From Candidatus Nanopelagicales bacterium (GTDB lineage Bacteria; Actinomycetota; Actinomycetes; S36-B12), in the NCBI GenBank assembly GCA_938091275.1, contig CALKMY010000058.1, forward strand, positions 1-27,991: 27,991 nucleotides of DNA. The letters are read 5' to 3'. The position numbers and the translations under genes were made by a program. Under the pieces are notes generated by a model. It made no database searches and was not told where the DNA came from. It was given only the letters and a program-made list of their open reading frames with translations. Shown here piece after piece: positions 1,254-17,399 of the stretch. Each line of letters starts with the position of its first letter. Position 1 is the first letter of the stretch.

Positions 1254-2993
1254 CTAGACGTCGATCGCCTGGCGAACCGCGTCGCGCACGCTCGTGAGCA
1301 ACTCCGCCTCGACACCGCGATCGCACGTGCGCACAACAATCACATGCACGCCGTCGGAGAGTCGAGCGGCAACGGCCGTCGCGAGTTCGTCGGCATCGTT
1401 CACTTCACACACTGACGCACCGAAGCTCGTCGCCAGAGACGCGATCTGCACCCCCATCGGAACTCCGAATACTCGTTCGAAATACCGCGAGTAAGCGGGC
1501 TCGCCCTGCTCCAGAGTGGAGAAGATCCCTGCTCCGTTATTGTCCGCAACTACGATGACTAGATCGGGACGCTGCTCGTTGGCCGGGACGGCGAGGGCGT
1601 TGGAGTCGTACCAAAAGGTTTCATCGCCGATCAGTGCCACGCTCGGTCCACCCCCGAGTGACTGAAAGCCCAGCGCGGCACCCCAGGCGGTGGAGACACA
1701 CCCGTCGATGCCCGACGTTCCTCGGTTGCCGAGAACTTCGACCTCTGTCAGGGAGCGACCGGCGAAACTCCCCACGTGACGGACCACTGAAGAAGACCCG
1801 AGGAAGAACTGCGAGCCCTCGCCCAGACAGGCGGCCACCGTGCGCGCAACTTCCATGCCGGACATCGACGAATGGCGCGACCCCAACACTGTTTCCACCG
1901 CTGCCGCCGCCATCAGGTCTGCGCGCTCCCACGCTGCCCACCATTGCGGATCGGTATCCGCCTCCGATGGCGGCAGCGGGACCGCCGCAAGGACGAGATC
2001 CGCGGTGCGGGTGGGGTCGCTCCACGACGATCGAGAGTCGACAGCGACATGCATGCCGGCTTGTGCGATCACGCTCGCGACCGATCGGTAGAGCCCCACA
2101 CGCCCCACCGTCACGACGATGTCGGGAACATGACGCTGAACGAACATCGGGTCGTCGCACACCAACGGTCCGTGCGCGAGACTGAGATTGGCGCCATTGG
2201 ATCGACCCGATGGTTCGGAGACGACCGGCCATCCCAACGCGTCCGACAACTCGTCGACTAAATCCACGGCGTCGTCGTCATCGTGGTCGCCCACCACGAT
2301 CAAACCTCGAGCAGGAACAACGGCCGTTTCATCCAAAAGGGCTAAGACTTCGTCGACTTGGATGCTCATCCCGGCGACGAGGCGAGCATCCGCAGTCCAT
2401 GGCCGCCCACCCGGCCGACCAGCCAACTCCGGCGGCAGTTCTTTCGTGACGCTCTCATCCACCAGCGGCTCATCGAACGCTGCGTTGATGTGCACCGGAC
2501 CGGGGTCGATGGAATCTGTCGCGACCGCCACGCAGCGGGCGACGGTGGAGCGCCAGTACTGCGGTCGGAGATCTCGAGCTGCTTCCATATCGACGGCGAG
2601 CCTGGTGAACGAGCCGAAAATCCCACTCTGTGTGATGACCTGATTGGCGCCGACGTTCCGAAGTCGATCGGGGCGATCTGCTGTGAGCACCACGAGCGGA
2701 ATTCGCGACTCGTGCGCCTCCACCACAGCGGGAAGAAGATTCGCCACCGAGGATCCAGATGTCGTCACAACCGCAGCCGGAACACCCGTCGTCTTCCCGA
2801 GACCGAGTGCCACAAATCCGGCGACCCGCTCGTCGACGCGAACGTGAAGACGGATGTCTCCCCGGTCTTCCGCGGACGCGAGGGCGAGCGCAAGGGGGGC
2901 TGATCGGGATCCCACGCCCATCACGACGTCTGTCACCCCGCAGACGATGAGCTCATCCACCATCACCAATGCCTGGGCGACCGAGGGTGCCAT
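1254..2993 (-). CDS. menD: SEPHCHC synthase (2-succinyl-5-enolpyruvyl-6-hydroxy-3-cyclohexene-1-carboxylate synthase)
   Basis: Motifs GSRSAPL, DERVAGF-ALG, TTSGS-VANL-PA, LTADRP, GANQ, GPVHIN, NRGTSGIDG, ThDP-binding GD...NN (IGD-TF-YDSN...DNNG). Start placed at ATG 2993, which has GGAG upstream. GTG 3005 is the alternative. Confidence 0.95.
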   Translation of the reverse strand: MAPSVAQALVMVDELIVCGVTDVVMGVGSRSAPLALALASAEDRGDIRLHVRVDERVAGFVALGLGKTTGVPAAVVTTSGSSVANLLPAVVEAHESRIPLVVLTADRPDRLRNVGANQVITQSGIFGSFTRLAVDMEAARDLRPQYWRSTVARCVAVATDSIDPGPVHINAAFDEPLVDESVTKELPPELAGRPGGRPWTADARLVAGMSIQVDEVLALLDETAVVPARGLIVVGDHDDDDAVDLVDELSDALGWPVVSEPSGRSNGANLSLAHGPLVCDDPMFVQRHVPDIVVTVGRVGLYRSVASVIAQAGMHVAVDSRSSWSDPTRTADLVLAAVPLPPSEADTDPQWWAAWERADLMAAAAVETVLGSRHSSMSGMEVARTVAACLGEGSQFFLGSSSVVRHVGSFAGRSLTEVEVLGNRGTSGIDGCVSTAWGAALGFQSLGGGPSVALIGDETFWYDSNALAVPANEQRPDLVIVVADNNGAGIFSTLEQGEPAYSRYFERVFGVPMGVQIASLATSFGASVCEVNDADELATAVAARLSDGVHVIVVRTCDRGVEAELLTSVRDAVRQAIDV

Positions 2994-3009
2994 CGCAGAA
3001 TCCACTCCC

Positions 3010-4068
3010 CTAGCCTTCCATCTGCTGGTGTGGTGTTACATCGCCCGGCGCCTGGTCAACCAGGTATCGATAAGCGTCGACCAATCGGCGCTGCCACCAC
3101 CGCCGACGACTGTCCGGCACTGCCTGATTCGCTCGCATGAGGAGATCCACGTCGGGGGCGACCCGTTCAACGCGGATGCCACCGGCGGTCGGCACGAGCC
3201 CGGGTTTCACCAGATCTCGCTCAAAAAGTGTGCCGGTTCCCAGTCCGCTCGCCAGGGGAAGCTCGGGCAGACTCGCAGCGGTGGCCACGCAACTCGCCAG
3301 CCCGATCGACGAGTCCAACGAGCCACCGATGACGACAGGTACACCGATAGCCTCCGCGACTCGGCCGGTGGCCATGGCGCCACCGAGAGTCATCGGCTTG
3401 CAGATCGCGTAATCGGCGATGCCCTGCAGGCGAACGGTTGTTGGATCATCCGCGAGCCGGATGCCCTCATCGACAGCGACCGGGATATCGATCTCCGCGC
3501 GCAACCGAGCGACGTCTTCCAGATCACGACAGGGTTGTTCCACGTACTCGATTCCATATCGCCCCAACCGCCGAAGAGACGTCCGCGCCTGGTCCAGGCT
3601 CCACATGCCGTTCACGTCCAGACGAATGCGGCCGTCGACCCCCGTGGAGTCGAGGGCGTCGCGGACGGCAACAACGCGCGCTTCATCGTCTGTGAGGGAT
3701 GTTCCGATCTTCACCTTGATGGTTCGACACCCGTTTTCCACGATCGCGGCGCGCGCCAACGCGCCCGCGGCAGGCGACTCGACCGCGGGGATGATCGCAT
3801 TGACATCCACCGACGATCGATGCGCTGCGGGGAATACACCCCACGACGCTTCCAGCGCAGCCGCCAACCAACGCGCGCTGCGAGCGATGTCGTAATCGTC
3901 GAACGGCGCGAACTCACCCCAACCCGACGGGCCCTTGATGAGCACGCCCTCGCGGGACGTCAGCCCACGAAACGGAACCCGCAACGGTAGGGAGAAGGAC
4001 ACCGAGTCGGAGACCAACTCTTCTAGAGACGACGGGCCGAGGGTCTGCACAGTCGTCGTCGCATTCAC
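3010..4068 (-). CDS. menC: o-succinylbenzoate synthase (actinobacterial type, enolase superfamily)
   Basis: [12 protein letters not shown]...GWGEFAPF N-terminus, KxK (IKVKIG), DVNG, EQP, DEG, KPMTLGG. The GTG start overlaps the menB stop (GTGA). Confidence 0.93.
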
Positions 4069-4997
4069 GGACGGCGCGGAAACTGATCGAAGTCCGGACG
4101 CCGCTTATCTTTGTACGCGTCTCGTCCTTCTTGCGCTTCTTCGGTCATGTAGAACAACAGCGTCGCATCGCCGGCGAGTTGTTGGACGCCGGCAAGACCG
4201 TCGTCGACGGCGTTGTGCGAGGCCTTCAACATGCGCAGCGCGAGAGGGGACATCGCGAGCATGTCGCTCGCCCAGCGAACCGTCTCGATCTCCAAGTCTT
4301 CGATCGGAACAACCGCATTCACCAAGCCCCAGTCGAAGGCTTGCTCAGCTCCGTATTGGCGGCACGTGTACCACACCTCGCGCGACCTCTTCTGTCCAAT
4401 CGTGCGCGCGAGCAACCCGGAACCGTAACCGCCGTCGAAGGACCCCACTTTCGGTCCGGTCTGACCGAACCGGGCATTGTCCGCAGCGATGCTGAGGTCG
4501 CTGACGACATGCAGAACATGACCGCCGCCGATCGCGTAACCGGCCACCATGGCGATCACAGGCTTCGGGGTGCGACGTATTTGAATTTGCAGGTCGAGCA
4601 CATTAAGCCGACCTATCCCCTTCTCCGCGACGTCGTCATCACCGATGTAACCATCGTCGCCACGGATGATCTGGTCACCACCAGAACAGAAGGCAAGATC
4701 TCCCTGACCCGTCAACACGATCACACCGACCCGATCATCGTCCCGTGCACGATTCATCGCATCGGACAGCTCGAACAATGTCTGGGGTCGAAATGCATTC
4801 CGCTTGTGGGGTCGGTCGATGGTGATCTTCGCGATCCCTGCACTGTCGCCGGAGGAGACTTCGTAGCGAATGTCCGTATACGAGCCCACCGACTTCCACG
4901 ATGCTCCCGGTCGTACGGAGCTGTGGGCGGGGTCGTTCCACACCGGAGAATCCTCGGGAGCGACCGGGGGAAGTAGGTAGCGCGTGCGGGTATCCAT
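4065..4997 (-). CDS. menB: 1,4-dihydroxy-2-naphthoyl-CoA synthase
   Basis: [46 protein letters not shown] motifs. Start moved to ATG 4997, with TAGCGT 7 nt upstream and GGAG just before it. Confidence 0.97.
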
Positions 4998-5004
4998 GCT
5001 CTCC

Positions 5005-5010
5005 ACGCTA
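5005..5010 (-). promoter_or_regulatory. Putative -10 element (TAGCGT) for a leaderless menB-menC-menD transcript
   Basis: TANNNT hexamer exactly 7 nt upstream of ATG 4997. Confidence 0.55.
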
Positions 5011-5021
5011 CCGGCAGCACC

Positions 5022-5027
5022 TACGCT
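5022..5027 (+). promoter_or_regulatory. Putative -10 element (TACGCT) for a leaderless menE-menA transcript
   Basis: TANNNT hexamer exactly 7 nt upstream of ATG 5035, which has no Shine-Dalgarno. Confidence 0.55.
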
Positions 5028-5034
5028 CGGCACG

Positions 5035-6267
5035 ATGTCGATTCCCGATCGCTCCCGGCCCCTCAAACTCGTCGAGGTGCCGCCCGGTCCTGCGGCGATC
5101 GAGGCACTGTGGGGTCCGCTCGATGCCGCTCTGGCTCACGATGCACCGATCGCCCCCATCCCGCGCGAGTCCGCATCACTGCCCGCGCCCCTCGTTCGCG
5201 CCCTCCGCGATGCCGTTCGTCCCGAAGAACCGGTACCCCACGACACGGCGGTCGTCATCAGCACCTCCGGGTCAACCGGCCACCCCCGGGGCGTCATGCT
5301 CGGCGCGCACGCACTCACCGCCGCCACCGCCCAGGTGCACTCACGCGTGGAAGGCGAGCCGATCTGGGTTCTCGCACTGCCACCCACGTCCATCGGCGGC
5401 CTGAACGTGATGATTCGAGCCCACAACACCGGAATCCGCCCGATCGCCGTGCGAAGTATCGGTGGCGCCGAACCCTTCACCGACCATGCATTCGCCACGG
5501 CCGTGCGTGAGGCAACAGCTACGGGGCGTCCCATTGCGGTCTCGTTGGTTCCGTCGCAAGTGACGCGACTGCTCGCCAGCGCTGCGGGGCAGGAGTCTTT
5601 GCGCCAGTGCTCCCTCACGCTGGTCGGGGGCGGGCCCGTCGATCCACAACTGCCGAGTCATTGCCAGGATGCGGGAATCACCCTGACGACGACGTACGGG
5701 ATGACCGAAACCAGCGGCGGCTGCGTCTTCGATGGTCGCCCCCTCGACGGTGTCGAAGTGCGCATTGACGACGCCGATAGCCGCGTCTGCGTCTCGGGAC
5801 CGATGTTGGCGCAGGGGTATCGAGACGGCGACAACCGCGCATTCGATGGCCACTGGCTTCGAACGAACGACCGCGGCACATGGAAAGACGGGCTTGTGAG
5901 TATCGACGGTCGGCTCGACGACATTGTGAGCCTTCACGGCGTCAATGTGGATCTGGCGGCAGTCCAGGAAAGAGTCGATCAGCATCCGCGGATCGAAGCG
6001 TCGCTAATCGTTCCGACATTCGGCCAATCAAGCGATGCGGACACAACAGATGAGCCCCGTATCGCGATGATCTACGTCGGAGGGCCCGTCGACCACGAGG
6101 AGCTTCGAGCCTGGATCTCACCGACTCTCGGAGCTATCGCCTGCCCCACTGTCATCCGCCGGGTGGACACCTTGACGCGAACGTTGACCGGCAAGGTCGA
6201 TCGACAAGCCACCGCGGCATCCGCCGGCCTGGGGATCGGGACATCGCGGAAAGAAGGCGCCGCGTGA
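5035..6267 (+). CDS. menE: o-succinylbenzoate-CoA ligase (short actinobacterial form)
   Basis: ANL/AMP-binding motifs [30 protein letters not shown]. Located in the men cluster. Start placed at ATG 5035, since the ORF-track start overlaps menB. Confidence 0.88.
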
Positions 6268-7151
6268 CAACGTCTGCGCAATGGTGGGCGGGGGCGCGGC
6301 CTCGCACCCTCCCGGCCGCTGTCGCCCCCGTCGTCATCGGTACGGCTCTCGCCGGGGCCGACTGGATTCCCGCTCGCGCATTTCTCGCCTTGATCGTGGC
6401 GCTCGCACTGCAAATCGGCGTGAACTACGCGAATGATTACAGCGACGGCATCCGCGGGACGGACGCCGATCGCGTGGGCCCTCTTCGGTTGGTTGGTCAG
6501 GGAATTGCCGCACCCCGCGCCGTCCGAAACGCGGCCTTCGCAAGTTTCCTCATCGCCGCGCTTGCCGGACTTCTGCTCATCGCCCTTTCAGGATTCTGGT
6601 GGCTCCTCATCGTCGGCGCGGCGTCGATCGGCGCGGCCTGGTTCTACACCGGGGGAACACGACCCTACGGATACGCCGGTTGGGGTGAGGTCTTCGTCCT
6701 CGTCTTCTTCGGCCTGGTTCCGGTCCTGGGAACGCTCTATGTCCAAACGGGAACAGTGACCGCAGCAGCGATCGCGGCCAGCGTGGGCATCGGCGCGCTC
6801 ACATCCGCTATTCTCGTCACCAACAATCTCCGGGACATCCCCACCGATCGATCTTCCGGGAAGTTGACGCTCGCGGTTCGGCTCGGGGAAACGAAAACCA
6901 GACGCCTGTACGTCGCACTCATCGTGATCGCCTTCATCGCGGTCGTCATGGTGGCGCTGGTGAACTCCGGCGATGCGCTATGGCCACTACTGGGGCTGGC
7001 CGCACTCCCCTGGGCTGTCCCCCCGCTACGTGTGGTCACCTCGGGAGCCGTCGGACCCGGGCTCGTCGCCGCTCTCATCGGTACCGGCCGACTCGTCATC
7101 GCCTACTCTGTCGCGCTCTCCACCGGATTGGTCCTGCCCCTGTTCATCTGA
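6264..7151 (+). CDS. menA: 1,4-dihydroxy-2-naphthoate polyprenyltransferase
   Basis: ARPRTLPAA, NYANDYSDG..GTD and NNLRDIPTD UbiA-family motifs, multiple TM helices. GTGA overlap with menE. Confidence 0.95.
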   Translation: MTTSAQWWAGARPRTLPAAVAPVVIGTALAGADWIPARAFLALIVALALQIGVNYANDYSDGIRGTDADRVGPLRLVGQGIAAPRAVRNAAFASFLIAALAGLLLIALSGFWWLLIVGAASIGAAWFYTGGTRPYGYAGWGEVFVLVFFGLVPVLGTLYVQTGTVTAAAIAASVGIGALTSAILVTNNLRDIPTDRSSGKLTLAVRLGETKTRRLYVALIVIAFIAVVMVALVNSGDALWPLLGLAALPWAVPPLRVVTSGAVGPGLVAALIGTGRLVIAYSVALSTGLVLPLFI

Positions 7152-7901: not shown

Positions 7902-8864
7902 TTACAAGCCGCCGTAAGAATGCAGGCTGTTGACGAAAATGTTGACGCCGAAGTAGTTGATCAAGAAGGTCACGAGCCCGAGGATTGCGATCCACGAAGC
8001 CCGATTCCCTCGCCACCCGGCGGTTGATCGGGCGTGCAGGTACGCGGCGTAGACCACCCACGTGATGAAGGCCCAGGTTTCCTTCGGGTCCCAGCCCCAG
8101 TAGCGCCCCCATGCATTCTCCGCCCAGATGGCACCGGCGATCACGGCGAAGGTCCACAGGGGAAAAGCGAAAGCGATGATGCGACTGGTGAAGGTCTGCA
8201 GCTTCTCCGTGGATGGCGTCGATGCCATCACCCCCTGCCAGGTCAGGCCCCGCTGCTCTCGCCTGGACTGCACCAGCGACAGGGCCGCCGCCGATGCAGC
8301 AACGGTGAAGGCCCCCGCACAGATGATTGCCGCCGAGACGTGGATGACCAACCAGTAGGACTTCAGTGCAGGTACCAGTTGCGCCGCTTCGGTGTACAGC
8401 ACCGTCACGGCGAGACCGAGCGTGAGCAACGCCGGCGTCACGACGAACAAGCCCAGCCACCGGAGGTCCCGGCGAGTCGATAGCACGAGGAAGACCACGA
8501 GTACGCCCCATGCTGAGCTGATCGAGAACTCGTACATATTTCCCCACGGCACCCGACCAGCCCATAGCCCGCGCAGGACCAGACCGACCGTCAGCAACCC
8601 GGTAGCCAGCCACGTGAGCGACATGGCAACGTTCGCCAACCGTCGGCCCGGTTCGGCGGCGACCGCGGTATCTACTCGGTCGATGACGGCAACGCTGCCC
8701 TCTGCTGTCTCCCGACTGGCGACGCTCGACGACGATGTGGTCCGGCGCCGACCGCTGGCGAAGGACGCAGCGAACAGGACCATCGCGACGGTCAGGGTGA
8801 CCATGGTCGCGTAAATGGCGGCGTTGCTGGCCTCGGCCAAGCTCATGGAACCACCGTCGGTCAT
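7902..8864 (-). CDS. ccsA: Cytochrome c biogenesis heme-handling membrane protein (CcsA/ResC family; often annotated CcsB in actinobacteria)
   Basis: WWD motif WAENAWGRYWGWDPKETW, PWGNMYEF, WLVIHV, LHSY. ATGA overlap with the resB stop. ATG 8846 is an alternative start. Confidence 0.95.
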   Translation of the reverse strand: MTDGGSMSLAEASNAAIYATMVTLTVAMVLFAASFASGRRRTTSSSSVASRETAEGSVAVIDRVDTAVAAEPGRRLANVAMSLTWLATGLLTVGLVLRGLWAGRVPWGNMYEFSISSAWGVLVVFLVLSTRRDLRWLGLFVVTPALLTLGLAVTVLYTEAAQLVPALKSYWLVIHVSAAIICAGAFTVAASAAALSLVQSRREQRGLTWQGVMASTPSTEKLQTFTSRIIAFAFPLWTFAVIAGAIWAENAWGRYWGWDPKETWAFITWVVYAAYLHARSTAGWRGNRASWIAILGLVTFLINYFGVNIFVNSLHSYGGL

Positions 8865-10465
8865 TGCTCGCTCTTCCTGTCGTCGTTCGACGTCGTTTCG
8901 TTCGCTGCTGCCTTACGTCCCGCGATGTGATCCGCCGCGATCTGCTGCACTGCTCGTACGTCCTCTGAGACGTCACCCGCTTCACTCTTGCTCAAGCCGG
9001 CGACGCCCACGAGGGTACTTCCCTGTTCGTCATCTCGCGCTCTGAGCCAGATGCGACGGCGGCGGGTGAACAACGACACCGTCAACGCGAGCATGGCCAG
9101 TACCGACGCGACCAATGCTGCCTCCTTGCCCGGATCGAAGGCGATTTGGAACGACGACCAGCGGGTCCAGCCAGTGAATTCGATCTCGCCCTGCGCGAAC
9201 TCCCACACCTGTCCAGGTACCAGCGCCCGGAGGCCGATCTGCTCCATCTCGTCGGTCGAGAGCGAGTAAATGCTCTGCGGCACTCCCGAGGCCAGCCCTA
9301 GGTCGCCGTACCAGGCGGACAGGAAGACCGAGGGGTCGTCTGCGTCGGGAAAGACCGAGTGAGGGCCGCGGATGTCATCGATGGCGGAGGTGGGGAGAAA
9401 CAGCCCGCGGAATCCCAGCTGCGGGTTGGAGTCAGGAATCTTGATGACGCCCGTGGACGTGAAGTTTCCATCTTGTGGGAGAAAGACGACGTCGTCATCG
9501 AAAACGACGTCGCCGGAGGAGTCGCGGACGATGAAGGATGGTGCGTAGCCATGCCCCACCAAGAAGACCTTCGCCCCTGCAATCGATATCGGGGAGTTGA
9601 CTTCGATGAGTTCCTCCCGAGCCCCCGCGCCAGGTTCGTTTTGCACAGCGACGCGTGCTTCGAAGAGGCGTGGAGCGCCCCGCTGTGCTTCGGACCGCTC
9701 GAACTCAACGTCGAAATCATCGAGAGTGAAGGAGAAGGGCGGAATGCTGTCTGCGGTGGCGAGTCGTCCCCCGCCCCACGCGTCGTATTGGGTGAGTGTG
9801 TTGGAGAACCCATTTCCTTCTTTGACGATGACGTTTCCTCGCCATCCGAAAAGACCACCCGCCGCGACGGCCACCAGAATCAAGACCAGCGCAAGGTGAA
9901 AGATCAAATTTCCCGTTTCACGCAGGTAGCCCTTTTCTGCTGACACCCATATGCCACCCGGATCCCCATCGACCGCGGCGTCCGAGCCGGTGCGTACCCG
10001 CCACCCGCGACGCCGCAACTCTTGGCTCACGTGGGACGAAACATCTGCAGGAGCAACGTCCACCGTTTCGTACGAGAAGGCTTGCATCCTGTCCAGGTTG
10101 CGCGGCGCTATCGGCGGCGGCGTGCGCATCGCCTTCCAGTGATGACCCACGCGGGGCAGGACACATCCGATGAGAGAGACGAAGAGCAGGAGGTAGATCG
10201 CTGCGAACCACGGCGCCCCGTACACATCGAAGAATCCGAGCCGGTCGAGCAGTGGACCGAGGATGGGTTGCTGGTCGATCCACTCGTCGACGAGGAGAGG
10301 GTTGTTGCCTCGTTGCGGAAGGATCGAACCCGGGACACTCGCGACAGCCAGGGCGAAGAGCAAAATCAGTGCGACCCGCATGCTGGTGAGTTGGCGCCAC
10401 GCCCACCGCAGGAAACCTTGGGAGTCCAACGGCGGCGCAACGGCTTCGACGCGGGTATCGCTCAT
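8861..10465 (-). CDS. resB: Cytochrome c biogenesis protein ResB
   Basis: 'LTSMRVALILLF-LA-ASVPGS--PQ', 'Y-APWF-AIY-LL..SL-GC', 'E-GNL-FH-AL' motifs. True start at ATG 10465 (ATGA overlap with the ccdA stop), not the ORF-track start. Confidence 0.92.
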   Translation of the reverse strand: MSDTRVEAVAPPLDSQGFLRWAWRQLTSMRVALILLFALAVASVPGSILPQRGNNPLLVDEWIDQQPILGPLLDRLGFFDVYGAPWFAAIYLLLFVSLIGCVLPRVGHHWKAMRTPPPIAPRNLDRMQAFSYETVDVAPADVSSHVSQELRRRGWRVRTGSDAAVDGDPGGIWVSAEKGYLRETGNLIFHLALVLILVAVAAGGLFGWRGNVIVKEGNGFSNTLTQYDAWGGGRLATADSIPPFSFTLDDFDVEFERSEAQRGAPRLFEARVAVQNEPGAGAREELIEVNSPISIAGAKVFLVGHGYAPSFIVRDSSGDVVFDDDVVFLPQDGNFTSTGVIKIPDSNPQLGFRGLFLPTSAIDDIRGPHSVFPDADDPSVFLSAWYGDLGLASGVPQSIYSLSTDEMEQIGLRALVPGQVWEFAQGEIEFTGWTRWSSFQIAFDPGKEAALVASVLAMLALTVSLFTRRRRIWLRARDDEQGSTLVGVAGLSKSEAGDVSEDVRAVQQIAADHIAGRKAAANETTSNDDRKSEQ

Positions 10466-11208
10466 AGGGCGGTCTCGAATCCGGGAATCGTCACACGAAG
10501 CCAGATCGTGAAGTCGAGCCAGAGCCCGGTGACAAGCAGCAGCCCGACGAGCACGAGCATCCCACCACCGATGCGCATAATCCACGTGTAGTGCCGCCGA
10601 ATGAAGTCGGTGGCGCGTGCTGCTCGCTCGATGAAGAAGGCGAAGGCGACGAATGGGATACCCAGCCCGATGCAGTAGCCGAAAGACAACAGCGCGCCGC
10701 GCAAGGCACTGGCTTCTGCGAGCGCGAGGGATTGCACGGCGGTCAGCGTCGGACCGATGCACGGCGTCCACCCGAGCCCGAACAGCACGCCGAGTCCCGG
10801 CGCTCCGATAACGCCCCACTTAGGCACCCGCATCCATCGGTACTCCCGCTGGAACCAGGGAATCACCCCCATGAACGCGAGACCCATGGCGATCACCAGA
10901 AGACCCATGACGCGGGTAATGACGTTCTCGTATCGCAGGAGAGCTGACCCGAGCCCACCAAAGAGCGCACCGTAGGACACAAAGACAACGCTGAAGCCGA
11001 GGACGAACAGCAGACTTCCTGCGAGCACGCGTGACTTTCGCTCACCCGTGGACAGCTCTACACCCGTCATTCCCGTGACGTAGGAGACGTATCCCGGCGC
11101 GAGAGGAAGAACGCAGGGGCTGATGAAAGCGACGAGTCCGGCCGCCACGGCGATAGGGAGGGCGACGAGCATCGACCCGCTCGTAATGATCGTGCCGATG
11201 TCACCCAC
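10462..11208 (-). CDS. ccdA: Cytochrome c biogenesis thiol-disulfide transporter CcdA
   Basis: SPCVLPL and WTPCIGP Cys motifs, about six TM helices, within the ccs operon. Confidence 0.95.
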   Translation of the reverse strand: MGDIGTIITSGSMLVALPIAVAAGLVAFISPCVLPLAPGYVSYVTGMTGVELSTGERKSRVLAGSLLFVLGFSVVFVSYGALFGGLGSALLRYENVITRVMGLLVIAMGLAFMGVIPWFQREYRWMRVPKWGVIGAPGLGVLFGLGWTPCIGPTLTAVQSLALAEASALRGALLSFGYCIGLGIPFVAFAFFIERAARATDFIRRHYTWIMRIGGGMLVLVGLLLVTGLWLDFTIWLRVTIPGFETAL

Positions 11209-11767
11209 GGTCAGCCACCTCGTCGATGACTCCCCGAAGTGTTGCGGCGCTCACTTTCCCCAGAATTCTCGCCGCCACCCGACCGTTGCCATCGATCACG
11301 AGGGTCGAGGGAATGGCTTGGGGCGGAAGCGAATCCGAGAACTGGAGTTGAACTTGACCATCAGGATCAAAGATGCTGGGAAAAGTCAGACCCATCGACT
11401 CGACGAATCCCTGCGCGGCGACGGTTGAGTCTCTGGTGTTCAAACCAACGAACTGCACCCCATTGCCCTGCTCTTCTTCCCAGACCTCCTGCAATTCAGG
11501 AGCCTCGGCACGACACGGCGCACACCAGGAGGCCCAGACGTTCATCACGACTGTTTCCCCGCGGTGATCGGCGAGGTCGAAGGTGTCGCCATCCAGGGTG
11601 GTGGCACGAACATCCGGGGCCGGCGCCCGCTGGGCCGGCTCTACGACGATGATCGATCCGTCACCGCCGACGAAACCGGATTCGGACTCGATCGAACTCG
11701 TTCCCCCCGCGTTACCGCAGGCGCTGACGGTTACAGCGAGGCACAGCAGGAGAACAAGCCGCTTCAT
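11201..11767 (-). CDS. resA: TlpA/ResA family thiol-disulfide reductase lipoprotein
   Basis: Lipoprotein signal (VSAC), WASWCAPCRAEAP, cis-Pro loop IPST. ATGA overlap with the upstream phosphatase. Confidence 0.88.
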   Translation of the reverse strand: MKRLVLLLCLAVTVSACGNAGGTSSIESESGFVGGDGSIIVVEPAQRAPAPDVRATTLDGDTFDLADHRGETVVMNVWASWCAPCRAEAPELQEVWEEEQGNGVQFVGLNTRDSTVAAQGFVESMGLTFPSIFDPDGQVQLQFSDSLPPQAIPSTLVIDGNGRVAARILGKVSAATLRGVIDEVADRG

Positions 11768-12408
11768 GCGCCGGCGATGGGACTGGCACCGGGGAGGAGA
11801 TCGCGCGCTGGCTCCGTATAAGAGATGGACATCAGTCGGTCACCATGGAAAGCCAGTGACGTGAGCGATGCCAAGTTGCACTGTCGGGAGCGGGGGTCGT
11901 GCCACAGCCGCCGGCCCTCCGCATCGAGCCGGGCGATCCAAATCGGCAACTGGTGGCTCACCAGAACCACTTCGCGACCGTCCGCCACTTCCAGAGCGTT
12001 CGCGACCGCCCGGCGCATACGTTCAGCGACGTCCTCATAGGGCTCTCCCCAGCTCGGGCGGAAGGGATTCCACAGATGCTTCCAGGTCCGCGGCTGTCGC
12101 AACACTCCATCCCCGACGCTCACGCGCTGACCTTCAAAGACATTGTCCGCTTCAATCGCCAAGGACTCGGTCCCGACGGTCAGCCCGTGCACCCGAGCGA
12201 TCGGGTCGGCGGTTTGCTGCGCACGTTCCATCGGCGAGGCAATAACTGCGGCTACGTCGTGCTGCGCGAGGGCCTGCGCGGCCATATCCGCCATCTGTAT
12301 TCCACGCTCAGAGAGCCGATATCCCGGAAGGCGGCCATACAGGACACCTTCGGGGTTGTGCACTTCCCCGTGGCGAAGGAGATGGACGACGCTGTGCTGG
12401 TCACTCAC
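11764..12408 (-). CDS. Histidine phosphatase (phosphoglycerate mutase-like) family protein
   Basis: LLRHGE catalytic motif, SP-ERA-QTA, VSHQLPI. Usual first gene before resA in actinobacteria. Confidence 0.9.
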   Translation of the reverse strand: MSDQHSVVHLLRHGEVHNPEGVLYGRLPGYRLSERGIQMADMAAQALAQHDVAAVIASPMERAQQTADPIARVHGLTVGTESLAIEADNVFEGQRVSVGDGVLRQPRTWKHLWNPFRPSWGEPYEDVAERMRRAVANALEVADGREVVLVSHQLPIWIARLDAEGRRLWHDPRSRQCNLASLTSLAFHGDRLMSISYTEPARDLLPGASPIAGA

Positions 12409-12414
12409 CCCTCG

Positions 12415-12420
12415 AGCCTA
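12415..12420 (-). promoter_or_regulatory. Putative -10 element (TAGGCT), leaderless ccs operon
   Basis: TAGGCT + 6 nt + GTG 12408, inside the 41-bp gap after hemD. Confidence 0.6.
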
Positions 12421-12449
12421 AGCACGACCGATGAAGGCGCATCTCGGGG

Positions 12450-14246
12450 TCACGACTTGCGCCGACCGGCCGCCCTTTTCTTGCTGGGGCGCCACTCATC
12501 CTCGCCTGCTTCCTCAGCCCGCTCACGCATGACGACTCCGTGAGCAGCCAACGCCTCCGCAAGGCCCTCAGGTGTGCTGTCCTCAGGGAGAACGTCCACA
12601 CGCAAGCCATGCTCCTCGGCCGTCTTCGCGGTGTGGGGACCGATGCAAGCAACAACGGTCGACTGATGCGGCTTGCCGGCGATCCCGACCAGGTTGCGCA
12701 CCGTGCTGCTTGAGGTGAACATCACCGCGTCGAACCCACCGGTCTTGATGGCCTCTCGCACAGGAGCAGGCGGCGGCGCCGCCCGCACGGTTCGAAATGC
12801 CGTGATGTCTTCGACTTCCCATCCCAATTCGGTGAGGCCAGCGGCCAGGGTGTCCGTTGCGATGTCGGCACGCGGCACAAACACCTTGTTGATCGGATCC
12901 AGGAGCGAGTCGTACGGCGGCCAGGCGTCAAGAAGGCCGCCGGTGCTCAAATCTTCCTCGGGAACCAGATCCGGTCGCACTCCGAACTCGATGAGGGCAT
13001 CGACTGTTCCCGGTCCACACGCAGCCACTCGAAGGCCGGAGAAGGACCGAGCATCCAGGCCGTAGTCGTAGAGCTTCTCGCGCACCGCACGAACCGCATT
13101 CGCCGAAGTGAAGCCAACCCACTCGTATCGACCTTCCACCAGACCCCGAACCGCACGCTCCACCTGCTGAGGGGTGCGCGGAGGCTCGACGGAGATGGTG
13201 GGCACCTCGCTGGGAACGGCACCCAGGCGCCGCAGACGAGTCACAAGACCAGCGGTGTTGTCCTGGGTACGGGGAATGAGAACGCGCCATCCGACCAGCG
13301 CCTTGCGCTCGAACCAGTCGAGTCGCTCCCGCTGCTCGACGACCTCGCCAATCACAACGAATCCACTTCGACGAGTCGTTGCAGCCTCGGCAGCTTCGCT
13401 CAAGGTCATGACAACGGTCTGTTGATCAACGGTTGTGCCATCTCGCGTGATGGCGACGGGGGTGTCGCCGGATCGTCCCGCCTCAAGCATGGCTCGTGCG
13501 ATGTGCACCAGATGATTGGCCCCGGAGGGGAACACCGCCGTGACGCGGGGAACAGCAAGTTCTTCCCAACGTACCGAGGAGTCCTGTGCGTCGATGACTC
13601 GGACTTCCTTGGCCTTGTTCCCTACGAGACCGAATCCGGCGTATGCCGGTACTCCCGTTATCTCGCTGACCGCGGGCACGATCTCTATGTCGATCTTGGC
13701 TCGACGTACGGCACCGACCTCACCCACGAGGCCCGACCCCATCATCGGGTCTCCTGCGAGCAAACGGACGACCACCGTTCCTGCCTTTGCGGCGTCAATG
13801 GCGGGCTTGATTCGATCCGCCGCCGGTCCGGCCGCGTCGGGGTCGACAACGTCAATGATGTCGGCCTCTACGAACGCTTCCGCGATCGGCACCGCCGCCT
13901 CGTCCGCGAGCACGTACCCCGCATCGCCCAGCATGCGAGCACCCCGGTGGGCGATCAAGTCAGGGTCTCCTGGACCGGCAGCAACGAAAGCGATGCACGG
14001 TGTGGCCGGCGTCTTCTTCTCAGACGCCTTCGTCACCACGGGCACATCGGCAACGTCGTCCACCGTTGACACCGCCGCACCGCCCGCCTTCTTTTTAGCA
14101 GCTGCTTTTGTGGCTGGCGCCTTGGCAGTCGGTGCCTTCTTGGCGGGTGCTTTCTTCACAGGTTCCTTCTTCACAGACTTCTCAGACTTCTCAGACTTCT
14201 TTGGCACTTTCTTCACGGGGGCCTTCTTTGCACTCTGGGAGCTCAT
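12450..14246 (-). CDS. hemD: Bifunctional uroporphyrinogen-III C-methyltransferase-like / uroporphyrinogen-III synthase (CobA-HemD fusion) with Lys-rich N-terminal extension
   Basis: N-domain GPGDP, RLLAGDP, PAYAG, GTT-DQ. C-domain W-VLIPRT, EVPTISVEPP, FTSANAV, PRADIA, FTSSSTV, CIGP-T. Residues 1-53 are low-complexity Lys/Ala/Pro. Confidence 0.92.
   Translation of the reverse strand: MSSQSAKKAPVKKVPKKSEKSEKSVKKEPVKKAPAKKAPTAKAPATKAAAKKKAGGAAVSTVDDVADVPVVTKASEKKTPATPCIAFVAAGPGDPDLIAHRGARMLGDAGYVLADEAAVPIAEAFVEADIIDVVDPDAAGPAADRIKPAIDAAKAGTVVVRLLAGDPMMGSGLVGEVGAVRRAKIDIEIVPAVSEITGVPAYAGFGLVGNKAKEVRVIDAQDSSVRWEELAVPRVTAVFPSGANHLVHIARAMLEAGRSGDTPVAITRDGTTVDQQTVVMTLSEAAEAATTRRSGFVVIGEVVEQRERLDWFERKALVGWRVLIPRTQDNTAGLVTRLRRLGAVPSEVPTISVEPPRTPQQVERAVRGLVEGRYEWVGFTSANAVRAVREKLYDYGLDARSFSGLRVAACGPGTVDALIEFGVRPDLVPEEDLSTGGLLDAWPPYDSLLDPINKVFVPRADIATDTLAAGLTELGWEVEDITAFRTVRAAPPPAPVREAIKTGGFDAVMFTSSSTVRNLVGIAGKPHQSTVVACIGPHTAKTAEEHGLRVDVLPEDSTPEGLAEALAAHGVVMRERAEEAGEDEWRPSKKRAAGRRKS
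14174..14200. repeat. Perfect 9-bp tandem repeat (CAGACTTCT)x3 within the hemD N-terminal tail
   Basis: Read directly from the sequence. It encodes the KSEKSEKS stretch on the minus strand. Confidence 0.9.
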
Positions 14247-15040
14247 GCGTTCATCACCTCTGACGTCTGACCGGTGGACGTCTGGTCGGTTGGTGGTGCT
14301 GGAGGTTCAAGTCGCGTGACCACCGAGCCATCCGGTTGCCTCCTGCGTTGCTCATGGAAAGCCAACACCTGAAGTTCGACGGCAAGGTCGACCTTCCTCA
14401 CCTCAACGTCCTCAGGGACGTTCAACACCACGGGGGCAAAGTTGACGATGCTCCGAACACCGGCGGCGACGAGACGATCGGCGATATCTTGAGCAGCATC
14501 CGCAGGTGTCGTGATGACGCCTATCCGAGCGTCGTTGTCTGCCACGATCGCACGAAGATTGTCCACAGATTCGACGGTGATCCGCCGGTCAACGACGGAG
14601 ACCACTGTCCCCACGACGTCGGGATGCGAATCGATCAAGCCGACGACCTGGAATCCACGACTGGCGAACCCTCGGTATGACACGAGCGCCCGACCAAGGT
14701 TTCCCACCCCGACGACAACGACTCCCCACGGACTCGTCAATCCGAGCTCGCGAGCAATTTGGTACGTGAGGAACTCAACGTCGTAGCCGACACCACGCGT
14801 GCCGTAGGAGCCGAGGTACGACAGATCCTTTCGAAGCTTGGCACTGGTGACTCCGCACGCGGTCGCGAGCTCTTCGCTCGAGACGGTGTGCGACCCAGAA
14901 TCGGCAAGCGACACCAGAACCCGGTGGTACACCGGCAGGCGTGCCACGGTGGCGTCAGGGATAGCCCGACCAGACATCGGGACCAGGGCCGGTCCGCGAC
15001 TATCGCTGGAGCGAGGTGCGGGAAGAGGCACGTGCGTCAC
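14243..15040 (-). CDS. rex: Redox-sensing transcriptional repressor Rex
   Basis: IPDATVARLP-Y, SSEELA, LRKDLS-LGSYGTRGVGY-V, Rossmann GVGNLG-AL, NFAP. Start uncertain (GTG 15040 or ATG 14977). Confidence 0.96.
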   Translation of the reverse strand: MTHVPLPAPRSSDSRGPALVPMSGRAIPDATVARLPVYHRVLVSLADSGSHTVSSEELATACGVTSAKLRKDLSYLGSYGTRGVGYDVEFLTYQIARELGLTSPWGVVVVGVGNLGRALVSYRGFASRGFQVVGLIDSHPDVVGTVVSVVDRRITVESVDNLRAIVADNDARIGVITTPADAAQDIADRLVAAGVRSIVNFAPVVLNVPEDVEVRKVDLAVELQVLAFHEQRRRQPDGSVVTRLEPPAPPTDQTSTGQTSEVMNA

Positions 15041-15116
15041 CTACATTGCAGTTACGGGGCACGGGAGCCATTCGGCGCTCAGCCACCGGGCCGTTGAGAG
15101 CCGAAAGAGTATGGCT

Positions 15117-15134
15117 TCGTGCACGAATGCACAA
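15117..15134. promoter_or_regulatory. Rex operator
   Basis: TCGTGCA-CGAA-TGCACAA is one mismatch from the perfect palindrome TTGTGCA-N4-TGCACAA and matches the known Rex box TTGTG(A/C)A-N4-T(T/G)CACAA. It lies upstream of rex. Confidence 0.8.
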
Positions 15135-15140
15135 AGTTTA
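15135..15140 (-). promoter_or_regulatory. Putative -10 element (TAAACT) of the rex-hemD promoter
   Basis: TANNNT directly abutting the Rex box on its upstream side. Confidence 0.6.
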
Positions 15141-15158
15141 CCGGACGTTTACGTCCGA

Positions 15159-15431
15159 TTATCGGTCTAATGCCTGACTCAACCGGACCGCATCTACCCG
15201 AAAGAAGTCGTGCCGTTCACCGTCTACGAGGACCACCGGGATCAACTCTGCGTACTCGTCGGCGAGGGCTGGGTCGTCATCGATGGAGATGACCTCGTAC
15301 CGCACCCCTCGTTGCACGCACACCTCAGAGACCACGGCCTCGGCCTCATCGCACAGGTGACAACCGGCACGGCCAATGATCTGCACACGCACTGCCAGGG
15401 CGTCATCGCCGGACCCGGCCCCACTCCTCAT
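15159..15431 (-). CDS. Glutaredoxin-like protein (DUF836/NrdH-like, CHLC)
   Basis: GCHLCDEA, 'Y-ELIPVVLVDG', usual position upstream of rex/hem genes. Start uncertain (ATG 15431 or GTG 15392). Confidence 0.85.
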   Translation of the reverse strand: MRSGAGSGDDALAVRVQIIGRAGCHLCDEAEAVVSEVCVQRGVRYEVISIDDDPALADEYAELIPVVLVDGERHDFFRVDAVRLSQALDR

Positions 15432-15456
15432 GTCCCTTATCTTGCCGACTACGCCG

Positions 15457-16332
15457 ATGTCTTACCCTGCCGATGTGGAAACTCCCGACGTGCTCACGTC
15501 TTATCGTCGCGCCGGGCAGGCATCGGCATCCGCCGCCGCGGACATTGAACACGATGTCTCCGCCACCGCGGCCTTCTTCGATGTCGACAACACCATCATG
15601 CGCGGGTCGAGCCTGTTCCATCTCGCCGTCGGTCTCGCCAAACGCAAGTACTTCAACGCACGTGAGATCAGTGGATTTGCCAGTAAGCAGCTGAAGTTTG
15701 TTCTCAGTGGCTCGGAGGACCTCGAGGACATGGCGTCGGCCACCGAGGCTGCTTTGTCGTTCGTGCAGAACCGCTCGGTCCAGGAACTGCAGGATCTGGC
15801 GGAGCAGATCTTCGACGCGGAGATGGTCGACAAATTGATCCCGGGATCTCTGGCGTTGGCCCAGGGACACCTCGACGCCGGGCAGCAAGTGTGGCTCGTC
15901 ACGGCTACTCCACAAGAGCTTGCGGCCGTGATCGCCCGACGCCTCGGCCTCACCGGAGCACTCGGGACGATTGCTGAAAGTCGCAACGGGATCTACACCG
16001 GAAAGTTGCACGGCCCTCCGCTGCACGGTCTCGCCAAAGCCGAAGCGGTACGCGCCTTGTCCACGAGCGAAGGCCTCGATCTCGGCGAGTGCAGCGCGTA
16101 TTCAGACTCCGTGAACGACGTCCCCATGCTGTCTCTTGTCGGTCACCCGACGGCCGTCAACCCCGACCCTGAGTTGCGTGCACATGCGATCGCCAATGAG
16201 TGGCGCATTCGCGACTTTCGACGCCGAGCTCGCATCAAGCCCTACGTGGCGCCTGTCGCCAGCGGCGCTGCCGGTATCGCCGTCGGCCTGGCGTCGGGAT
16301 ATCTCCTGGGACAGATGCGAGGTCGCCGCTAG
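15457..16332 (+). CDS. HAD-IB family hydrolase (SerB1-like)
   Basis: HAD motif I AFFDVDNT, motif II LVTA, K in KAEA, motif IV YSDS-ND. Start uncertain (ATG 15457 or 15430). Confidence 0.9.
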   Translation: MSYPADVETPDVLTSYRRAGQASASAAADIEHDVSATAAFFDVDNTIMRGSSLFHLAVGLAKRKYFNAREISGFASKQLKFVLSGSEDLEDMASATEAALSFVQNRSVQELQDLAEQIFDAEMVDKLIPGSLALAQGHLDAGQQVWLVTATPQELAAVIARRLGLTGALGTIAESRNGIYTGKLHGPPLHGLAKAEAVRALSTSEGLDLGECSAYSDSVNDVPMLSLVGHPTAVNPDPELRAHAIANEWRIRDFRRRARIKPYVAPVASGAAGIAVGLASGYLLGQMRGRR

Positions 16333-17399
16333 GCGAAAGCACCGCCGCGTTGGGCGAGCAGGTCATAGAGGCGACGCTGGATACGTTCGCGCACCTGGTC
16401 GGTGATCTCGAATAGGACGGCGGGGTCGTCGGCTGCCCCGGACGGTAAGTGATCCGTGGGGATCGGATCGTCGAAGTGAATCAGCCATTTGCTCGGCAGC
16501 GGCACCAAACCCAGCGGCCCCAAGAAGGGAAAGGTCGGGGTGATGGGGAAGTAGGGAAGCCCGAGAACGCGGGCCACGACCGACGCATTCGCCACCATGG
16601 GATAGATCTCCTCGGCTCCCACGATCGCGGTCGGGATGATCGGCGTCCCCGTTCGCACGGCGGCTGAGACAAAACCCCCACGTCCGAAGCGTTGGAGTCG
16701 GTAGCGCTCCGAAAAAGGCTTTCCGATGCCCTTGAACCCCTCCGGCCACACTCCGACGACCTCACCTGACGTCAGCAGGCGCTCAGCGTCGTCGTGGCAC
16801 GCCAGCGTGTGGCCGGCTCGACGAGCCACGTCCCCGAGGAAAGGCGTTTGGAATACGAGGTCGGCACCCAACATGCGCAAGAACCGGTGTGAGGGATGCT
16901 CATCATGAATAGCCACCTGGGTCATCACCGAATCCACCGCAATGGTGCCGGAGTGGTTGGCCACCACGAGGGCTCCTCCTTGATCCGGAATCGACTGGAT
17001 TCCCGAAACCTCTACTCGGAACCAGTTGCGATACAGCGGACGAACAGCCTGCAACAGCACCTTGTCTGTGAATTCCGGATCGAATCCAAAATCGTCGACC
17101 GCATACTCGCCGGCAAGTCGCTCCCGAAGCACGCTCCACATGCCTGGCGAATTGTCCGCATTCATCGGTGATGCGTCACGTGGCGGCGCATTGTTCAAAG
17201 TGACCGCTGTCTTGATCTTGCGCTTCTTGGGGGTGCTCGCACTACCGGAATTAGCAGTGCCGGAATTAGCGGCGCCGGCCTGTGCCGTGCGGGAATCAGA
17301 CGACCCCGCCGAAGGCGCGGCCAGCCGAGGACCGGTGGCTCCTACTTCACGTGCCGCCTTCGACGGACGCACGCGGTTATCAGGTCGAGAGTCATCCAT
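16329..17399 (-). CDS. Lysophospholipid/PlsC-type acyltransferase family protein (Rv0502-like)
   Basis: VDDFGFDPEF, NHSG...D, PEG-KG..K, RFGRGGF, PIIP-AIVGAEE, LPSKW. ATG 17399 overlaps the epimerase stop by 8 bp. Confidence 0.88.
   Translation of the reverse strand: MDDSRPDNRVRPSKAAREVGATGPRLAAPSAGSSDSRTAQAGAANSGTANSGSASTPKKRKIKTAVTLNNAPPRDASPMNADNSPGMWSVLRERLAGEYAVDDFGFDPEFTDKVLLQAVRPLYRNWFRVEVSGIQSIPDQGGALVVANHSGTIAVDSVMTQVAIHDEHPSHRFLRMLGADLVFQTPFLGDVARRAGHTLACHDDAERLLTSGEVVGVWPEGFKGIGKPFSERYRLQRFGRGGFVSAAVRTGTPIIPTAIVGAEEIYPMVANASVVARVLGLPYFPITPTFPFLGPLGLVPLPSKWLIHFDDPIPTDHLPSGAADDPAVLFEITDQVRERIQRRLYDLLAQRGGAFA

Follow-up and report, generated by a model that had tools for sequence, protein, structure and literature searches.

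Organization of the rex-cobA-like/hemD locus

The window analyzed in this study is a 27,991-nt stretch of DNA (contig C58 of a metagenome-assembled genome, MAG, of a Candidatus Nanopelagicales bacterium), and the element in question is a gene for the mid-pathway heme enzyme HemD, which is retained between rex and the cytochrome c maturation genes while the other heme genes of the locus are missing. The genes of this locus are all encoded on the minus strand. A Rex ortholog, the redox-sensing repressor (14243-15040; NF003992, 343 bits against a cut-off of 226), stands at the head of the operon, but hemA and hemC are missing from it. Instead, the TGA stop of rex overlaps the ATG start of the next gene in the four nucleotides ATGA (14243-14246, by direct reading of the sequence), and the identical 4-nt overlap was found in relatives of the genus when their loci were compared. 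This next gene (12450-14246) codes for a fusion protein of 598 aa with a CobA-like (PF00590) and a HemD (PF02602) part, and is the orphan that has been retained. It is followed by a spacer of 41 bp (12409-12449), which is the position of hemB and hemL in prototrophic relatives, and then by a histidine phosphatase family gene with a GTG start (His_Phos_1, 11764-12408; PF00300, 117 bits), a gene for a ResA-like thiol-disulfide oxidoreductase (11201-11767; PF00578 and PF08534), ccdA (10462-11208; PF02683), resB (8861-10460; PF05140, 457.7 bits) and ccsA (7902-8864; PF01578, 167 bits). The machinery that requires heme (resA, ccdA, resB and ccsA) is therefore kept in the window. The original prediction for this DNA had noted the ATGA junction, the 41 bp between hemD and the phosphatase-resA-ccdA-resB-ccsA genes, and the lack of pseudogene fragments at either junction, and our reading agrees with it on these points; neither the rex/cobA-hemD nor the cobA-hemD/phosphatase junction has room for a pseudogene remnant.

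That prediction had also relied on the gene order of Streptomyces and Mycobacterium, with hem genes around hemD and hemL before the phosphatase block. For this order of bacteria the ancestral arrangement proved correct: rex-hemA-hemC-cobAhemD-hemB-hemL-HisPhos-resA-ccdA-resB is present in 10 HemC-positive genomes from seven other families, and the epimerase, acyltransferase and HAD genes beyond rex are common to these genomes and the window. The window differs from the ancestral order by two separate deletions, one of hemA-hemC on one side of cobA-hemD and one of hemB-hemL on the other side. The window shares the fused CobA-like/HemD protein, the flanking genes and their order with the rex-hemACD cluster of Streptomyces and with the hemA-hemC-hemD/cysG-hemB ... 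hemL-phosphatase-thioredoxin-ccdA-resB-ccsA arrangement of M. tuberculosis, a likeness verified in the 10 HemC-positive genomes and in 73 loci of other Actinomycetes. Unlike these actinobacterial rex-hemACD(B)/hemL-ccs clusters, the window lacks hemA, hemC, hemB and hemL, has rex coupled directly to cobA-hemD, and has a phenylalanine in place of a catalytic-site tyrosine of HemD.

Apparent absence of the heme pathway in the MAG and most of its genus

Profile searches of the MAG (1.24 Mb, 234 contigs, 70.5% complete) found no HemA, HemB, HemC (PF01379) or HemE. Nothing in the MAG exceeded the cut-off for HemL either, and the matches to its model were ordinary aminotransferases far below that cut-off. 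HemA, HemB, HemC and HemE are likewise absent from 18 of the 19 other genomes of the genus, some of them 93-98% complete. Ferrochelatase, ChdC and siroheme-type reductases (NIR_SIR) were not found in five near-complete relatives (G004, G005, G017, G023 and G030; 93-99% complete), where the sole other TP_methylase is a gene product of ~295 aa; consumers of precorrin-2 (siroheme enzymes, corrin pathway) were not found in the five near-complete relatives searched. A complete heme pathway of any variant is lacking, and as far as a MAG of this completeness allows the statement, the organism is a heme auxotroph of the acI type. Since no HemC was found, there is no hydroxymethylbilane (HMB) for HemD to act on, and with HemE, ferrochelatase, ChdC and any pathway dependent on uroporphyrinogen III C-methyltransferase (SUMT, EC 2.1.1.107) not found either, there is no enzyme to use its product. 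With neither a substrate nor a sink, the canonical reaction of uroporphyrinogen III synthase (UROS, EC 4.2.1.75) cannot be the reason why the gene is kept.

The exception within the genus is G015, the nearest relative of the MAG, which has hemE-hemA-hemC/D-hemB-hemL on an 18.5-kb contig (C47; locus L039, G015:C47:6000-18543). The GC content of this contig is 58% versus ~63%, and its proteins are only 37-65% identical to those of the second-type heme clusters of family f1, which are described below. Plain contamination was our first reading of this contig, and it was given up when second-type heme clusters proved genuine in other f1 genera. Its assignment as a genuine f1 second-type cluster was given up as well, because the proteins are too divergent and the GC content is too low. 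The contig is probably foreign, mis-binned or recently acquired. The predicted loss of hemA, hemL, hemB and hemC, as opposed to their simple relocation, thus holds for the MAG and for 18 of the 19 genus genomes, but it is qualified by the completeness of the MAG and by G015.

Recurrence of the reduced locus and a second heme cluster

The occurrence of HemC and HemD was surveyed in 200 genomes from the order, each with a completeness of 85% or more. Of 70 f1 genomes, 22 have HemC and 69 have HemD; in family f7, the corresponding counts are 5 and 41 out of 42. The reduced locus was seen in 23 of 23 f1 loci and in both f7 loci examined. A clade made up of f1 and f7 was rejected by the approximately unbiased (AU) test, both with five proteins of the locus (p-AU 0.003) and with RpoB plus RpoC (2460 columns, p-AU 0.006), values to be read with the caveats that the grouping was named after the tree had been seen and that the f7 branch is long and AT-shifted. 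Two f10 genera, g35 and g37 (G059, G069 and G088; loci L270-L272), have rex-cobAhemD-HisPhos-resA-ccdA-resB without HemC in a family that is otherwise prototrophic. As their genomes measure 3.4-3.7 Mb, the pattern does not depend on genome streamlining. HemC and HemB are also missing from G519 (f85) and G522 (f88), two genomes from outside the order that keep the fusion gene; it directly follows rex in f85 and has no rex adjacent to it in f88. Given that f1 and f7 are not sister families, and given the f10, f85 and f88 cases, the same outcome arose several times.

Where HemC is present in f1 and f7 genomes, rex-cobAhemD-HisPhos is kept, and the heme genes are located elsewhere in the genome, in a second, divergent cluster. 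Besides hemC, hemB and hemL, this cluster includes a hemA that is ~30% identical to the order's own hemA, a hemD of its own, which is either a separate gene or fused to hemC, and a CysG-like gene with NAD_binding_7 and TP_methylase domains (162 bits). In these genomes the protein of the rex locus is redundant for both of its nominal activities and is still kept. Second clusters were seen at loci L051, L053, L055, L056, L058, L060 and L061 (G052, G129, G203, G041, G154 and G133), with two in G203; their origin could be either transfer or an old paralogous set.

Domain architecture of the fusion protein

In the 598-aa protein, a Lys/Ala/Pro-rich tail precedes a TP_methylase domain (aa 85-285; PF00590, 100.6 bits), and a HEM4 domain (aa 334-563; PF02602, 199 bits) is followed by a basic tail at the C terminus. 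Over its whole length it is 51-60% identical to the sole HemD of HemC-positive genomes, which occupies the same position between the same flanking genes. The hemD described in the original prediction as full length with preserved motifs is indeed intact in its HEM4 domain, but it is not a plain hemD.

The methylase-like part (aa 85-314, 13305-13994) has the tetrapyrrole methylase fold and matches CysG and NirE structures, and it is divergent from bona fide SUMT. It scores below the curated SUMT cut-offs, with 113.5 bits versus 198 for NF004790 and 106.4 bits versus 185 for TIGR01469. The motifs YDRL, GDPxxFGRGGEE and THR are functionally important in characterized SUMTs. These CysG motifs are absent both from the window protein, which has LADEA, GDPMMGSGL and VGNK instead, and from the prototrophic orthologs of the order, and further glycine and aspartate positions are altered in the window's genus. 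We would not call the domain a SUMT.

UROS sequences are usually poorly conserved. The HemD domain with the UROS fold (aa 321-566, 12549-13286; PF02602, 199 bits), whose profile matches the solved UROS structures 4es6, 3mw8, 3re1 and 1jr2, is 67-70% identical to orthologs of Streptomyces, Aeromicrobium and Kribbella. Sequence conservation of UROS has been described as different from that of the other heme enzymes (PMC13564367). The N-terminal tail (aa 1-84, 13995-14246, delimited by alignment) is confined to family f1 and is absent from f7 and from the HemC-positive orthologs with a placeable start (e.g., G027, in which the methylase domain begins at aa 15). It also carries in-frame repeat indels in environmental contigs, with 9 nt inserted or 18 nt deleted at 14173/14174. 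The C-terminal tail (12453-12548) contains a W-R-P-S motif and two Arg further on, and these residues do not vary among the 22 orthologs of the order that were aligned, whether or not heme genes are present.

Selection on the HemD domain

The dN/dS ratio, calculated from six closely related genomes, is 0.092 for the whole cobA-hemD gene, with 0.03-0.19 for the neighboring genes. By domain, it is 0.27 for the N-terminal tail, 0.107 for the methylase-like part, 0.031 for the HemD domain and 0.24 for the C-terminal tail. At deeper divergence and relative to five neighboring proteins, the HemD domain evolves at a rate of 0.45 in HemC-negative f1, 0.42 in f1 genomes with a second cluster and 0.39 in the prototroph families. 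The relative rate of the methylase-like domain goes from 1.06 to 1.81, about 1.7 times the prototroph rate. Conservation of at least 95% among 30 orthologs from the order's other families is seen at 143 columns of the HemD domain, and 115 of these columns are still conserved at 90% or above in f1 (n=61) as well as in f7 (n=21). No frameshifts or stops were present in the 88 orphan orthologs examined. Relaxed selection on hemD, which had been named as an outcome that would undermine the original prediction, was looked for and not seen; the HemD domain is as constrained as in prototrophs.

Recurrent change from tyrosine to phenylalanine at the catalytic site

When a profile was built from 22 HemD domains, the Tyr in the TAYRTV motif aligned with that of ITVYQTV in human UROS and with the Tyr of three bacterial UROS structures (1jr2, 4es6, 3re1 and 3mw8 were used in the profile alignment; human Tyr168 is index 189 in a chain with 21 extra residues). 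At this position the window protein has Phe484 (codon 12795-12797, minus strand). The tyrosine was reportedly proposed by Schubert and coworkers in 2008 to help the substrate hydroxyl leave. It is present in all 30 orthologs from other families of the order (28 of them from HemC-positive genomes) and in all 73 native-context loci of other orders, that is, in 103 of 103 orthologs of families or loci that keep heme genes, without a single Phe. Among the f1 and f7 orphan orthologs, Phe is found in 38 out of 82 (24 Phe and 37 Tyr in f1, 14 Phe and 7 Tyr in f7), and the tree requires no fewer than six state changes at this position. The same trend is apparent at another tyrosine, Y374, and the remaining changes in the HemD domain are all conservative. 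This pattern fits a pocket that is still required when its chemistry no longer is.

Regulation and environmental occurrence

A palindrome resembling a Rex operator, TTGTGCATTCGTGCACGA in the minus-strand reading, is located at 15117-15134, ~94 nt upstream of the rex start, with three mismatches to the Streptomyces consensus TTGTGAA-N4-TTCACAA. The search of the window found this one site with N4 spacing and none with N6 spacing. As 0.4 such sites are expected by chance and at least one occurred in 35 of 100 shuffles, the site alone is not significant; its 18-mer is identical in 12 loci of the genus. The putative control of hemD by Rex is based on the ATGA overlap and on this operator-like palindrome with its three mismatches. 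Marine, salt-marsh and seawater metatranscriptome libraries contain contigs over the locus (window positions 10400-16400) at 96-99% identity, including one 7.6-kb contig that extends from ccdA through rex. These near-identical matches suggest that the genus is brackish or marine and not strictly freshwater.

Possible role of the retained protein

Our reading, to which we assign a probability of about 0.5, is that the organism no longer makes tetrapyrroles and that cobA-like/hemD is kept by selection in a non-catalytic, tetrapyrrole-binding role. What the data show directly are the deletions, their recurrence, the purifying selection and the lost hydroxyl of the catalytic-site tyrosine; the non-catalytic nature of the role we infer, and the most likely course is that a second, non-catalytic function predated the loss of heme synthesis. 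Tetrapyrrole binding is favored because the motifs of the cleft are the conserved part of the protein and because the gene lies between rex and the ccs genes. The HemD domain would then act as a non-catalytic module whose conserved interdomain cleft binds a tetrapyrrole, speculatively scavenged heme or a porphyrin, and it could buffer this ligand or hand it on in a heme-scavenging, respiring cell. The fusion protein, Rex and the cytochrome c maturation genes would be expressed together, and the methylase-like domain may be an accessory under weaker constraint. The non-canonical role that the original prediction had proposed for HemD gains from the lack of any heme pathway found and from selection that is not relaxed, but the role itself is still an inference. 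More tentatively, and with somewhat lower confidence than we attach to the reading for this organism, the fused CobA-like/HemD of Actinomycetes in general might have an old second function free of catalysis, either in cytoplasmic tetrapyrrole or heme handling or in regulation tied to Rex and respiration. Such a function would explain the class-wide conservation of HemD, and would have been laid bare where heme synthesis was lost and Tyr became free to change to Phe.

Several observations weigh against tetrapyrrole binding in a non-catalytic role. The ligand of UROS is held through eight carboxylates; heme offers only two. More than half of the orphan orthologs keep Tyr, and Y168F, in work attributed to Mathews and coworkers in 2001, reportedly lowers the activity of human UROS and does not abolish it, so that Phe484 is not proof of inactivity. 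The MAG is 70.5% complete, and a second heme cluster is possible in its missing part. The evidence from RNA libraries consists of contigs only, some of them spanning divergent genes, and is not proof of transcription. Finally, some lineages do without the protein. ResB is kept in the absence of both HemC and HemD in G237 and G357, which belong to other classes, and also in three f99 genomes of the window's own class (G533, G569 and G593; complete, single-contig, 1.4-1.5 Mb), with HemB also absent in G533, the sole f99 genome checked for it. Heme use and cytochrome c maturation can thus proceed without the protein, and the idea that HemD retention simply tracks cytochrome c maturation is ruled out by the same genomes. 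In a survey of 300 genomes from other orders of the phylum (at least 90% complete), HemC and HemD go together, as 67 of 70 HemC-negative genomes also lack HemD and the three exceptions are two sub-threshold matches and one assembly of 810 contigs; most of the lineages negative for both also lack ResB. Four unpublished genomes (G216, G263, G303 and G335) and G537 enter these tallies only as HemC-positive members, and none of our conclusions depends on them. Retention is typical of this group of Actinomycetes and is not obligatory.

The acI genomes lack every middle-pathway heme gene, HemD included (Kim et al. 2021, bioRxiv 10.1101/2021.01.11.426183). The likeness is that de novo heme synthesis has been lost in respiring planktonic Actinomycetes that keep the hemoprotein machinery; the difference is that the window's lineage keeps HemD under selection, and the acI state is seen here in f99. 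Family f99 has dispensed with the gene, in agreement with the published description of acI. We had considered that family f7 (~49% GC, 1.2-2.1 Mb) might be acI and that the gene had been overlooked by Kim et al., and dropped this idea because f99 without HemD matches that paper. In Porphyromonas gingivalis and relatives, which are heme-auxotrophic Bacteroidota, HemA, HemL, HemB and HemC are absent and a HemD homolog of undetermined function is kept in all species analyzed (PMC13096392). Those genomes, however, keep HemN/W, HemG, HemH or a corrin pathway able to use the product, none of which was found here, and the protein in the window is of a different, fused and highly conserved actinobacterial type in a rex-ccs operon. 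The salvagers of tetrapyrrole precursors (Shelton et al. 2018, PMC6461909) similarly miss early tetrapyrrole genes and retain later ones, but they keep a contiguous downstream pathway for corrin ring synthesis, whereas the window's lineage has a single mid-pathway gene with nothing found upstream or downstream of it. The locus had been put forward in the original prediction as a candidate undescribed system, a description narrowed by the orphan HemD already published, unexplained, for Porphyromonas; the heme auxotrophy of aquatic actinobacteria is also published. New to this analysis are the second heme cluster, the number of independent events, selection values for each domain, the contrast with other lineages and the recurrent Tyr-to-Phe change. 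None of the papers searched mentions this gene in Nanopelagicales-type genomes.

Among the alternatives, a role unrelated to tetrapyrroles fares best. The protein could be a scaffold or regulator that binds protein or nucleic acid, for example a partner of Rex, with the conserved HemD surface and the basic tails (the C-terminal WRPS-basic tail and the Lys-rich N-terminal tail of f1) mediating the contact. This is a possibility that we hold with less confidence than tetrapyrrole binding, although a partner-binding or regulatory role is nearly as likely. It would account for a HemD domain that is far more conserved than is usual for UROS, as seen in the identity to Streptomyces, for the WRPS and RR residues that do not vary between orthologs with and without heme genes, for the translational coupling to rex, and for the heme-scavenging lineages that keep ccs without the protein. 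Among the invariant residues, however, are the FTS and TSSS loops, which are characteristic of the ligand cleft in UROS, and the N-terminal tail is missing in f7 and evolves fast.

That the pathway of this particular MAG has merely been relocated, in the form of a second-type heme cluster in the unassembled 30%, is improbable. Such a cluster occurs in 22 of 70 f1 genomes, and the incompleteness of the MAG and the heme contig of G015 also leave room for it; on the other side, four unlinked searches of the MAG were all negative, the 18 genus genomes without the genes include those of 93-98% completeness, and the G015 contig departs in both GC content and identity from the f1 clusters. As a second cluster brings its own HemD, retention of the rex-locus gene would need explaining even if relocation were true.

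Less probable again is a working uroporphyrinogen III synthase that obtains its substrate from an unrecognized HemC analogue or a neighboring organism and delivers its product to an unknown pathway. The UROS fold and most cleft residues are intact, and the catalytic-site Tyr survives in the majority of orphan orthologs. But HMB cyclizes chemically within minutes (PMC13564367), which makes its uptake implausible, a HemC-like match is absent in 48 of 70 f1 and 37 of 42 f7 genomes, and searches for HemE, ferrochelatase, ChdC, siroheme enzymes and a further corrin methylase were negative. Moreover, the Tyr hydroxyl was lost repeatedly and solely in orphan lineages. Finally, a neutral relic on its way out, kept since its deletion would disturb the promoter position, translational coupling or polarity of the rex-ccs operon, could point to the tight packing of the operon (4-nt and 41-nt junctions), the loss in f99 and the accelerated methylase-like domain, but it is largely refuted by the selection data, as operon spacing would neither hold the dN/dS of the HemD domain at 0.03 nor keep 115 of 143 columns conserved while several lineages diverged independently to the level of families, and no frameshifts or stops were seen in the 88 orphan orthologs.

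Heme auxotrophy is now seen as common among abundant aquatic bacteria, and the intracellular handling of scavenged heme is poorly understood. A mid-pathway enzyme that was spared in several separate losses of its pathway, under strong selection and with repeated loss of its catalytic-site hydroxyl, is a clean natural experiment that points to a moonlighting or pseudoenzyme function. Mycobacterium, Corynebacterium and Streptomyces have orthologs that are regarded as ordinary UROS/SUMT enzymes, and a second role, if true, would matter for heme metabolism in these organisms too. The case also cautions that a retained gene of this type can be hidden or misinterpreted when pathway completeness is scored.

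Neighboring genes

Upstream of rex lies a glutaredoxin-like gene (DUF836, 15159-15431, minus strand; PF05768, 61.6 bits). The maximal open reading frame (ORF) of resB extends to 10819, and the PF05140 match begins at aa 147 of this long ORF; with orthologs of 515-533 aa, the true start is probably near 10460. Beyond ccsA there is a block of menaquinone-type genes (1254-7151), which comprises genes for a MenD-like TPP enzyme (1254-3005), a MenB-like enoyl-CoA hydratase (4065-5066), a MenE-like AMP-binding enzyme (4984-6267) and a UbiA-family prenyltransferase (6264-7151), and which fits a respiring organism.

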